Made by a program: the position numbers and the translations under genes. This document shows, one piece after another, positions 8,468 through 58,764 of a stretch of DNA of 64,000 nucleotides (position 1 is the stretch's first letter; every line of letters begins with the position of its first letter). The stretch is taken from NCBI GenBank assembly GCA_965217895.1, contig CBDCJV010000002.1:2112001-2176000 (forward strand), written 5' to 3'. The notes below the pieces were generated by a model, which did no database searches, was not told the origin of the DNA, and saw only the letters and a program-made list of their open reading frames with translations. Origin of the DNA: Waterburya sp. (GTDB lineage Bacteria; Cyanobacteriota; Cyanobacteriia; Cyanobacteriales; Xenococcaceae).

Positions 8468-8566
8468 CAGATTACTCCGCCCTAAACGGACGGAGCCTGT
8501 CTTGGACAGCGTTCCCTTGCGCCTGACGGCGACGCGGGGTCTGTCCGCTGCTGTGACCGTTGGTCA
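8468..8566. mobile_element. 99-nt nested hairpin insertion with GTCA direct repeat
   Basis: gtca at 8464 and 8563; inverted gtcacag...ctgtgac; removal restores VID/LVNQK. Confidence 0.75.
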
Positions 8567-8625
8567 ATTACCCAATATTCAGGAATGCTATTGCAAGCAT
8601 AAATAATTGTTTTCTGTTCCAAGTC

Positions 8626-8727
8626 CTTCTTGAAACAATCGCTGCACAACGCGAAGCGTTGAGTCGCGTCTAGCGACGCTCTGGGCGCATAGCCCTGCGG
8701 GGAAACCCCCAAGACCGCGTTGTTTCG
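8626..8727. mobile_element. 102-nt nested hairpin insertion (GGGGAAACCCCC family)
   Basis: cttcttgaaacaa...ggggaaacccccaagaccgcgttgtttcg; removal restores ETLRK/DLEQK. Confidence 0.8.
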
Positions 8728-9298
8728 CTTCCTCAAGGTTTCCTTAGAAACTTCTATTAGCCAATAGATATTCTCTGGATAGGGATGATGAGCATCATAA
8801 ATGCTCTCTGGTAACTGAACAATGGCGATATCTGGTTCTGGTTCGCTTGCTCTCGAATAGGGGGAGTTGTTTAAAGTAATCGGGTGGGATTCATAGACTT
8901 CCGCTAATCCATCTAAAAGCTTTCTCAAGTATTTAACAGCCCTATGATTGGTATTGCGGTGAGGGACTCCTTCGTGACTCATGGCAGTTATTTCTCCCTC
9001 TAAAAATTCGACTTTTTTACCAGCCAAAACTCCTGAATCAACTAGATCGTGCCATTCTTCAATTGACCATTTATAAGTAGTTATAGTCATATTATTGTTT
9101 ATGCTTGATCGATAAAGGATTTAAGATCTATCTCTAACTTTCTCCATAATTTTGATAGCTTCTACCACGACATTTTATAGGTTTTTCGGACAATTGTAAT
9201 GTGAATATCGATAAAGATGAGTCTGAATGGAGATTATTGCACTTAATTGGGGAAAAGTAAGAAGAGTTAGGTAAAGCATGAATATTAGATGACAACTA

Positions 9299-25876: not shown

Positions 25877-25902
25877 CTAAATTAACTTGAGAATTGCGAT
25901 CG

Positions 25903-25954
25903 CACCCTCGACAGTTCCTACAACAGGGGAAACCCCCGCAACGGACTGTCTCGC
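25903..25954. mobile_element. 52-nt hairpin mini-element (copy A)
   Basis: caccctcgacag...gggggaaaccccc...ctgtctcg; removal restores the palindrome GAATTGCGATCGCAATTC. Confidence 0.8.
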
Positions 25955-26145
25955 AATTCAGATTCCTCCTCTTGGCTAATTAGATGATTAAAGAAAAAAA
26001 AGAGATTCTGGTTTGCGATGTCCTGCATAAACAGCTTTTCCATCTGATTCAGCGAGGAAAGTTACTACCAAGAAAATCTCTCTTTAGGATCGTGTTTATC
26101 TTTCTTTTAACTGTAAAACTAGATGATAAATACAAAATAAAGACT

Positions 26146-26433: not shown

Positions 26434-26670
26434 ACTTTGATCGCTGTTGCTGCTTAAGTCGCCTTACTACCAGAAAAATCGCCTGTGAAAACGCGCATTG
26501 ATCGCGAATATTTCCACGGGCGATCGCTCTAAAACGAGATTTCTTAGAAGTGCGATCGCCATCAATGATTATAGTAAGCCAGTTACCTGTTTGATTGATT
26601 CTTTTTTACTATTGGGTGCTTTTTGCTCGATAAATAAGGTAATGATGTATTTCAGCAGGATTTAGTACAA

Positions 26671-26783
26671 TAGGACTTACGCAGTTTAACTAGTTTTGCC
26701 CCCCTAGCCCCCCAAATCTGGGGGAACAAGAATTAAAAGTCCCCCAAATTTGGGGGATTTAGGGGGCGAGTGCATAAGACCTT
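26671..26783. mobile_element. MITE-like element wrapping paired C/G-run hairpins
   Basis: TIRs taggacttacgca / tgcataagacctt; inner cccctagccccccaaatctggggg...cccccaaatttgggggatttagggg. Confidence 0.65.
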
Positions 26784-26796
26784 AATTCATTTTTAT

Positions 26797-47250: not shown

Positions 47251-48756
47251 ATGACTTTAAACGTATACAATACTCTTACCCGCACCAAGTCAACGTTTCA
47301 AACCATTGAAGAGAATAAAGTGCGGATGTATTGCTGTGGCATAACTGTCTATGATTATTGTCACCTTGGTCATGCTAGAACTTGTCTAGTATGGGACGTG
47401 GTGCGTCGTTACCTACGGTGGAGTGGTTATAAAGTAAATTACATTCAGAATTTTACTGACATTGACGATAAAATCCTCAAGCGCGCCAGACAAGAAGGAA
47501 CTTCAATGGAGGCAGTTTCCGAAAAGTATATTGAGGCATACTTTGAAGACATGGAACAGTTAGGAGTTGGCAAAGCCGATGCCTATCCCCGCGCTACCCA
47601 TACCTTAGATGGCATTAAGCGTTTAGTTTATGAATTAGAACAAAAAGGTTTTGCCTATCCTGCCGAGGGAGATGTTTATTATTCTGTACAAAAGTTTCCT
47701 GAATACGGCAAGCTATCAGGCAGAAAGTTAGAAGATATGCAGGCTGGTGCTAGTGGCAGAGTTAGAGTTGAAGATCCCGAAGCTAGTAAGAAGCGCGCCA
47801 GCACTGCGGACGATGTTCTCGACCCAGGTGACTGGCGTAAGAAGCAGTATGCCTTCGATTTCGCCCTTTGGAAAGCTGCCAAAGAAGGTGAACCTGCTTG
47901 GGAATCTCCTTGGGGAAATGGTCGTCCTGGCTGGCATATTGAGTGTTCGGCAATGGTCAGAGAAAGACTAGGAGAAACCATCGATCTTCATGTCGGCGGT
48001 GGAGACTTGATTTTTCCCCATCATGAAAACGAAATTGCTCAATCTGAAGCAGTAACGGGTAAACCCCTGGCTAACTATTGGCTGCACAACGGCATGATCA
48101 TTGTGGAAGGGAAAAAGATGTCTAAGTCTTTAGGTAACTTTATTACTATCCGCGAGTTGTTAGATAAATATGAGCCAATGGCAGTACGTTTGTTTATTTT
48201 GCAGACTCAATATCGTAAGCCTGTAGACTTTACTGAATCAGCCTTAGCTACAGCTACTAATAGCTGGGAGACTTTGAAAGAAGGATTGCTGTTTGGTTAT
48301 CAATATGGCAAAAAATTAGCTTTTTCAGCCTCTAGCGATCGCGCTATTCGCAACCAAGAATTAGTTAAGCGATTTAAAGAAGCGGTTGACGATGATTTTA
48401 ACTTTGCCGGTGGTTTAGCGATTTTATTTGAAATTGCTAAGAATCTAAGTAAAGAAGGTAATATTCTAGTCCATCAAGGAACAACCAAAACAACAACAGA
48501 AGAGTTGGCTGCACAATGGCATACTTTAATTGAGCTTGCAGGAATCTTGGGTTTTGCAGTGCAGATTGAAGATGTTGATGACAATAGTAACCAAGGCTTA
48601 AGTGATGGAGAGATAGATGCTTTGGTGCAGCAGCGTAATGATGCTAGAGCTAATAAAAACTATGGCCAAAGCGATCGCCTTAGAGACGAACTACAGGCAC
48701 AAGGTATTACTCTAATTGATAAACCAGGAGGCATTACTATTTGGAATCGAGGTTAA
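47251..48756 (+). CDS. cysS: Cysteine--tRNA ligase (with a 17-aa insertion)
   Basis: CGITVYD, HLGH, GRPGWHIECS, KMSKS. Confidence 0.97.
   Translation: MTLNVYNTLTRTKSTFQTIEENKVRMYCCGITVYDYCHLGHARTCLVWDVVRRYLRWSGYKVNYIQNFTDIDDKILKRARQEGTSMEAVSEKYIEAYFEDMEQLGVGKADAYPRATHTLDGIKRLVYELEQKGFAYPAEGDVYYSVQKFPEYGKLSGRKLEDMQAGASGRVRVEDPEASKKRASTADDVLDPGDWRKKQYAFDFALWKAAKEGEPAWESPWGNGRPGWHIECSAMVRERLGETIDLHVGGGDLIFPHHENEIAQSEAVTGKPLANYWLHNGMIIVEGKKMSKSLGNFITIRELLDKYEPMAVRLFILQTQYRKPVDFTESALATATNSWETLKEGLLFGYQYGKKLAFSASSDRAIRNQELVKRFKEAVDDDFNFAGGLAILFEIAKNLSKEGNILVHQGTTKTTTEELAAQWHTLIELAGILGFAVQIEDVDDNSNQGLSDGEIDALVQQRNDARANKNYGQSDRLRDELQAQGITLIDKPGGITIWNRG
47795..47845. mobile_element. 51-nt in-frame hairpin insertion in cysS
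   Basis: taagaagc direct repeats at 47787 and 47838; cgccag...ctggcg stem. Confidence 0.75.
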
Positions 48757-55727: not shown

Positions 55728-55740
55728 ACATTGAACATTG

Positions 55741-55792
55741 CGAGACAAAACCGTTGCGGGGGTTTCCCCCGTTGAGGTTATTGTCGAGGGTG
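55741..55792. mobile_element. 52-nt hairpin mini-element (copy B)
   Basis: cgagac...gcgggggtttccccc...tgtcgagggtg; reverse-strand homologue of 25903-25954 inside an A(A/G)CATTG heptamer array. Confidence 0.8.
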
Positions 55793-58627: not shown

Positions 58628-58764
58628 GTACGGGCGAACAGCCCTAAAGGGTGCGGTAGTCGCTCTTTGCTGGAAACCAACACCGCAAGCGTGGAATAAG
58701 CTGCTTACGAAGCAGCATTTCCGCTTGCAAAGACCAAGCTACCTTACCGTTCGCCCCTAACTGA
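58628..58764. mobile_element. REP-like palindrome split by a 105-nt multi-level nested insertion
   Basis: gtacgggcgaacag | insert 58642-58746 | ccgttcgcccctaactga; compare 7640-7671. Confidence 0.8.

Follow-up and report, generated by a model that had tools for sequence, protein, structure and literature searches.

The window analysed here, a 64,000-nt stretch of the nearly closed, 5.29-Mb, 39% GC genome of a Waterburya strain (G000), carries two copies of a short element with defined ends, together with nested or decayed sister forms (Table 1). Among the 50 open reading frames (ORFs) of the window that were scanned, there were two Uma2-family nuclease genes and no transposase, recombinase or reverse transcriptase (RT) genes, in line with the original prediction that no cognate enzyme lies nearby. 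An Rfam scan of the window returned no match. With a covariance model (CM) of the element, only copies 1 and 2 were recovered in the window (E value of about 1e-18), the next best match having an E value of 1.5.

Table 1. Copies of the A-ended element, their targets, and sister forms in the window
Feature	Position	Strand	Remarks
Copy 1	25903..25953	-	A-ended element, 51 nt; CM match, fold, empty sites
Copy 1 target TTG, directly 5' of element	25954..25956	-	
Copy 2	55741..55792	+	A-ended element, 52 nt; CM match; absent at orthologous sites
Copy 2 target TTG, 5' of element, in heptamer run	55738..55740	+	
Sister form, B/H ends (after AAG; tail TCAAGAAG)	8626..8727	-	102 nt via nested repeats; bounds assigned by analogy
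Sister form, B/H ends, decayed core	47794..47844	+	51 nt, in frame in cysS, 17 extra residues
Sister form, C-type ends (lead TAA, tail ending ACCCTTTAGGG)	58642..58746	-	Nested repeats

Read from the CGAGAC end, elements of this family, here termed A-ended, have a 3-nt lead and an outer stem of 7 to 8 bp that contains a bulged A. GTT faces TGA or TGNA in the internal loop, beyond which come a 7-bp hairpin and a tail of 7 nt whose usual sequence is GAGGGTG. Copy 1 has the lead CGA, an outer stem with the bulged A, a GTT x TGTA internal loop, the 7-bp hairpin, and the tail GAGGGTG; copy 2 has an 8-bp outer stem and a GTT x TGA internal loop. The ends and core that the two copies were predicted to share, and the ATTG that both follow, are seen in both sequences. 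Both had been given as 52 nt long, which is correct for copy 2 only, as base 25954 is the G of the target and lies outside copy 1. Deletion of 25903-25953 restores the predicted palindrome of 18 nt, and deletion of 25903-25954 does not. The cut at copy 1 was made after the first G of a HIP1 octamer, of which there are 5,798 in the main contig of G000, and inside the palindrome, whose halves lie at 25891-25902 and 25954-25959. Deletion of 55741-55792 likewise leaves the unbroken heptamer run that had been predicted. The length of A-ended elements was 51 or 52 nt in all 59 contexts measured.

RNA folding of the CGAGAC strand gave z scores of about -3.8 to -4.0 for both copies, and DNA folding of the same strand gave -2.0 and -3.5 for the two. 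Among 22 intact copies from G000, 94.8% of cells in the stems were paired, against 71.8% after shuffling, and two-sided (compensatory) change was found in 11/14 pairs, a level reached in 0/500 shuffles. The structure was derived from the same sequences, which makes the slide control lenient, and related copies inflate such tests. Positions 8-10 show three to five pair types and zero unpaired cells. The compensatory change is thus far stronger than the partly compensatory stem differences between the two copies from which it had been proposed, and the covariation that was to be tested holds.

Insertion contexts were collected in a table from which 46 rows were left out as unclassified or register duplicates. 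TTG occupies positions -3 to -1 in 73/80 distinct contexts, and in 19/22 after merging similar hosts; its share of intergenic trimers is about 2%. Position -4 is free, as is the right flank except for CG in 7/22 contexts against a background of 3.1%, an excess whose source may be GC-rich host repeats. Targeting specific to HIP1 was rejected, since HIP1 is restored in only 4/80 contexts and is therefore a minor target. The element also inserts into itself, because TTG stands on both sides of its inner hairpin. A match of 2 to 8 nt between the leader and the adjacent target had been predicted. It stands only for the 3' tail of the CGAGAC strand compared with the bases 5' of the cut, where it amounts to 1-2 nt in the A-ended family and 8 nt in cysS; between the 5' lead and the right flank it is 0 nt in 54/80 contexts and never more than 3, and homology of this kind was rejected as a rule. 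Tails end in TG, like the target, in 47/80 contexts, and in CG or A in 33/80. A self-guiding base was also rejected in the A-ended family, the best permutation count for element-target covariation being 17/500 among 396 tests, and the T at -3 of the target mismatches the usual G of the tail. Simple guide pairing therefore does not explain TTG. The A-ended family inserts 3' of TTG without duplication.

Empty sites, proposed as a further check, exist in both orthologous and paralogous form. The site of copy 1 is empty in G190, G185 and G191, whose sequences are gap-free across the junction and show exact restoration; G189 diverges before the junction, and no joint at copy 1 was found in contigs from sequencing runs. 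Copy 2 is absent from six relatives. In three of the six the site is, in addition, shorter by 14 nt, and in one metagenome contig 66 nt are missing, the last of them being 55792, so the heptamer run at copy 2 grew by two units too. In the reverse direction, two foreign copies have an exact empty site in G000 when compared by element-removed flanks (L138, 87.6% over 596 nt; L185, 92.7% over 599 nt); L191, L208 and L174 also have empty sites in G000, but with indels nearby. Duplication of a heptamer target was ruled out at L185. For one copy, 28 paralogous empty sites were found. In a repeated transposase-like gene, which we take to be of IS982 type, filled copies carry an element whose tail has A as its last base; three empty copies have an uninterrupted sequence, showing that the G preceding the element is part of the target. 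No duplication or loss and no truncated ends were found at verified junctions. G000 and G191 carry copies at non-shared sites, and several elements lie in frame in long ORFs. Copies 1 and 2 are copies of a real, recently mobile micro-element. Collectively, the empty sites and the covariation sustain the description of a mobile family that is non-coding, keeps its structure, has precise boundaries, and is about twice the size of small dispersed repeats (SDRs).

A similar plan had been noted at 8626, at 58655 and in cysS. The plan is indeed shared; these forms have other ends and nested or decayed cores. The form at 8626 lies in frame in a Uma2-family gene (8482-9090, minus strand). That gene runs on into a further repeat cluster at 8470-8560, which resembles an IS605-type end. 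The form at 58642 lies in the centre of a REP-like palindrome, a region that orthologous contigs skip or replace. In cysS the boundary can slide within an 8-nt repeat; the site is empty in 5/5 relatives, and the element-removed flanks align without a gap.

Four types of ends occur on the same core, and a separate target motif goes with each: TTG, NAG, mostly YGG, and a loose WGNN. A ends keep TTG with every type of internal loop (63/69, 6/6, 3/3 and 1/2). B/H ends, with a tail ending in AAGAAG, follow NAG in 11/12 cases. C ends have the lead TGA and a tail closed by a small hairpin, ACCC..GGG; NG precedes them in 29/30 cases, of which 20 are YGG. The minimal form, 45-46 nt long with a 2-nt lead and tail, is preceded by a loose W-G-N-N (94 contexts). 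Furthermore, one core sequence occurs with both A and B/H ends. In the A, B/H and C classes the tail terminates in bases similar to those that close the target, which is the predicted match of 2 to 8 nt viewed from the opposite strand. In these comparisons it is the ends, and not the core, with which the target changes, and the ends likely set the landing site, a link that is a correlation across classes with non-independent hosts. When the ends were left free, 88/107 metagenome copies had RA before and G after the stem, a set used in place of the D class, which is defined by RA..G and whose GNRA count is therefore circular. The joined ends of the minimal form would thus read as a GNRA loop, which suggests a circular intermediate.

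Other members of the family and its sister forms were also seen. A different high-copy repeat at 26670-26785, with AGGACTTACGCA-like inverted ends and C/G-run hairpins, hosts nested members elsewhere in the genome. In-frame members or nested clusters lie in contig G000:C2 at 549542, 563006, 1425441, 2761110, 3081693, 3090749, 3561681, 4759720, 4886454 and 5089082, in ORFs of 381-974 aa. The only match on a viral contig (L332:1480-1540) has the core after TTTG and CGA, but a GT tail, and so mixes an A lead with the tail of the minimal form. A 631-nt contig (L102, G003:C346:1-631) consists of six copies in alternating orientation within a larger inverted repeat whose period is about 221 nt, and may be a collapsed repeat.

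G000 holds 34 listed A-ended copies, some swollen by nested repeats, and 82 CM matches including sister forms. Range was assessed in 39 genomes of the genus, in a phylum draw of 151 genomes, and by a scan of a genome collection. The left-end pattern of the A class was present in 27/39 genus genomes, with 0 to 56 occurrences each, and no control matched. In the phylum draw, a CM match was found in 29/151 genomes, all of one order; by family, these included 22/24 genomes in f7, which we infer to be Nostocaceae, and 0/65 in f28. The collection scan gave about 170 stretches; among the 100 listed, 64 were real copies and 36 were chance pattern matches (35 GC-rich loci and L167). Within the first 80 loci, real holders were labelled Pleurocapsa, Waterburya, Xenococcaceae, Hyellaceae, Pleurocapsales, Chroococcales and unclassified cyanobacteria. 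The A-ended family is one end-class of a wider superfamily of 45-57 nt that is common in one cyanobacterial order.

The closest comparison is with the SDRs. SDR1-8 of Nostocaceae, described in 2008 by Elhai et al., are reportedly about 21-27 nt long, keep their structure by compensatory change and nest in themselves and in heptamer arrays, with a mobiliser that is said to be unknown. On this description, the families have in common that they are tiny gene-less cyanobacterial repeats with a compensatory fold and the same nesting habits. They differ in length, the A-ended family having 51-52 nt and the minimal sister form 45-46 nt, compared with about 20. Iterated sequences of the Nostoc tRNA-Leu intron are said to measure about 24, 45 and 48 nt, and the minimal form, common in the family inferred to be Nostocaceae, may be that intron unit. 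SDR5 is given as 21 nt, with its function called unknown, in an excerpt of PMC13756078, and is described in part of PMC4390886 as inserting between bases 3 and 4 of HIP1; the A-ended family, in contrast, enters HIP1 after base 1. The portion of PMC5861425 consulted states that SDR-like repeats were not found outside Nostocaceae, whereas holders of the A-ended family, by their Pleurocapsa, Waterburya, Xenococcaceae and Hyellaceae labels, lie beyond it. The A-ended family thus behaves like an SDR but departs from SDRs in length, position in HIP1 and range. The consulted parts of PMC4476775 and PMC2884548 gave no sequences, and the inner hairpin may itself be a described SDR.

Also close are terminal-only PATEs of IS200/IS605 elements, namely the 52-bp HqIRS46 and ISHwa23 core deletions described in an excerpt of PMC3119063. 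The A-ended family resembles PATEs in size, in its hairpin, in the short target motif adjoining it, and in having neither terminal inverted repeats nor a target duplication. It differs in its covariation-kept fold with a bulge and an internal loop, in ends that are interchangeable between classes, and in that Y1 TnpA does not co-occur; moreover, a search of G000 within 4 kb, and of the surroundings of 33 Y1/RAYT loci (29 Y1 and 4 RAYT), revealed no parent IS with ends of this kind. The polarity of the element would agree with that of IS200/IS605, depending on the working strand, but its motif has 3 nt (TTG, with -4 free) rather than the fixed 4-6 nt. REP/REPIN sequences, likewise short repeats that form hairpins, are held to depend for their movement on an HUH enzyme supplied in trans, the RAYT (PMC3116915, PMC3733652 and PMC6006769, each in part); unlike these, the A-ended family occurs as single units without a GTAG or CGTC foot and without a flanking RAYT, and REP-like palindromes are instead insertion targets of sister forms. 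A MITE was rejected, the ends of the element being unpaired and unlike each other, with no target duplication. The features of an IS110 bridge-recombinase substrate do not fit either, TG being shared in 47/80 contexts only and no matching guide being seen by eye among those of 28 loci. No description of the A-ended family was found in the open-access literature searched. The strongest of the new findings are two: the exact TTG rule, together with the empty sites at orthologous positions, and the association of each end type with a target motif.

To our knowledge, how cyanobacterial micro-repeats move has been an open question since 2008. The reading that we favour, with a probability of roughly 0.45, is that of a non-autonomous element that moves as a folded single-stranded circle, opened and pasted by an enzyme acting in trans. 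Such an enzyme would recognise the shape of the stem, including the bulged base and the internal loop, on binding, and would cut after the 3' end of the element and after a similar motif in the target. The strands would then be swapped in the manner of IS200/IS605 peel-and-paste transposition, the circle being opened at its joined ends and pasted into the target, and the choice of motif would lie with the short lead and tail that flank the stem. A one-sided motif, the lack of duplication, a fold conserved over sequence, and a target-like 3' end follow the logic of IS200/IS605. IS608 passes through an ssDNA circle and enters on the 3' side of a short motif (PMC5027513, in part), and the 52-bp terminal-only PATE is a precedent for the size (PMC3119063, excerpt). 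Outer stems are almost all Watson-Crick paired (9 G-T among 1080 cells); the small number of G-T pairs fits DNA, which is weakly favoured over RNA. No head-to-tail junctions or dimers were found in G000, the fetched loci or the 39 genus genomes, and an exact-stem search for a gene-carrying parent recovered only nested repeats of up to 166 nt. Among 174 neighbouring ORFs in G000, judged without annotation, no recurrent gene family was seen beyond small paralog groups. The GC skew of G000 is too flat to place the replichores for a look at lagging-strand bias.

A standard Y1 TnpA or RAYT is probably not the enzyme involved. To look for candidates, the count of A left ends was correlated with enzyme counts across the 39 genus genomes, which are non-independent by kinship and for which p values are uncorrected; the A pattern misses sister forms, G182 having 56 CM matches. 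The values were rho -0.31 (p 0.05) for PF01797 (Y1), +0.33 (p 0.04) for RT, +0.31 (p 0.06) for IS110 and +0.18 for a divergent IS110 family. Of the candidate mobilisers, Y1 HUH, IS607 and IS110 enzymes do not track with copy number. G191, a single contig with 38 A left ends and 106 CM matches, the highest CM count among the closed genomes tested, lacks any match to Y1 or IS607 and any homologue of RAYT. The only Y1 match in G000 is a frameshifted RAYT-like gene (L001:1462-1993, G000:C2:2354797 onward), followed by its own GTAG-footed palindrome. No IS607 match over the cut-off was found in G000, G185, G191, G190, G010 or G175. IS91 Y2 matched in 0/5 genomes, an uninformative result since the control also lacked any match, and Rep_1 in 1/5.

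Movement as RNA, a route reportedly proposed for SDRs, is less likely. Transcripts of the strand with the GGAAACC loop would be processed or circularised, and an RT of the group II intron type would copy them into nicks or breaks through end homology of 1-3 nt. The apical GNRA loop and cUUCGg are RNA-type motifs and are read on that strand, opposite to the CGAGAC strand, in the apical loop and the C tail, respectively. RT genes occur in 37/39 genus genomes, and their count shows the weak correlation given above; however, this count is confounded by assembly quality, and G169, with 22 RT matches, has only 8 CM matches. Similarly, the GGAAACC strand runs with transcription in 18/24 informative cases in G000 (p 0.02), but this orientation bias was not replicated in other genomes (19 versus 22). 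Wobble pairs are few, and the verified junctions, free of truncated ends and duplications, also speak against an RNA route. Genes for group II intron RTs are present in L108 and L109-L111; three have the same score and an open frame of 516 aa. In L108 the RT match is preceded, at a distance of about 1.2 kb, by an A copy.

Mobilisation by an IS110-type DEDD recombinase is unlikely. In that reading, recombination would take place at a dinucleotide core common to element and target (TG for the A-ended family), and the scaffold would be either a bridge RNA or the element. The lack of duplication beyond the shared end and the tails ending in TG fit such a route, as does the count correlation (rho 0.31); G000 has two intact-looking divergent IS110 genes with two-loop upstream RNAs, and ISPpu9 mobilises a gene-less module (PMC12288879, in part). 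On the other hand, the tails ending in CG or A do not share the core, the 3-nt target is far shorter than the guides in IS110 loci, and no donor-loop guide of the 28 loci matches an element junction by eye. The divergent family does not track (rho 0.18); it is present in 4/7 element-free f11 genomes and was not found in G010, G009 and G168.

The divergent IS110-like genes of G000 lie at about 2.845 Mb and 3.923 Mb of G000:C2 (L116:300-1821, plus strand; L117:1345-2870, minus strand), with relatives in L362-L409, and encode proteins of about 406 aa with DEDD and serine motifs by eye and weak Pfam scores. The guides of the upstream two-loop bridge-like RNA match the right end and flank of the IS110 element. 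In most of the 28 loci a hammerhead-like core (CUGAUGA..GAAAC..GUC) precedes the bridge-like RNA; its RF03152 score of 29.8 bits is below threshold. In the literature, one preprint names IS110, bridge RNA and hammerhead, and the part of its text consulted does not link them.

In an equally improbable reading, the family is a core-deleted PATE that owes its spread to a standard IS200/IS605 TnpA or RAYT, an enzyme that has meanwhile disappeared or that passes through on plasmids. The insertion polarity and lack of duplication would fit, and recent PATE insertions are described in a strain whose TnpA genes are all pseudogenes (PMC3119063, excerpt); RAYT-like open frames occur in G185 (186 aa) and G010 (191 aa). 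Against this, G000 and G191 have copies at non-shared sites and both lack an intact Y1 match, and the parent element was not found. The Y1-rich genomes G181, G169 and G184 have few CM matches (1, 8 and 17), but G182, also Y1-rich, has 56. Least probable of all is the absence of any dedicated mobility, with spread by recombination, repair, gene conversion between repeats, or hitch-hiking in larger repeats: many copies do lie inside other repeats, some sharing one host event, and deletions between internal repeats occur, but such processes would hardly yield a fixed target motif, strong covariation, and exact insertions in unique DNA whose flanks are unrelated, and the empty sites largely refute it.

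Returning to the folded single-stranded circle, its furthest extension is one that we regard as rather unlikely, namely, a superfamily of 45-57-nt ssDNA dumbbells in which a shape core recruits a new strand-transfer enzyme, unrelated to TnpA, RAYT, IS607, IS110 and intron RTs, and swappable ends of 2-13 nt program the target. Exact ends, a target rule and natural end swaps make the question of mobility directly testable. If the ends do program the target, this would be a very compact, scarless insertion system. Within the genomes that carry them, these elements add 17 or more in-frame residues to proteins such as CysS and thereby shape coding sequence.
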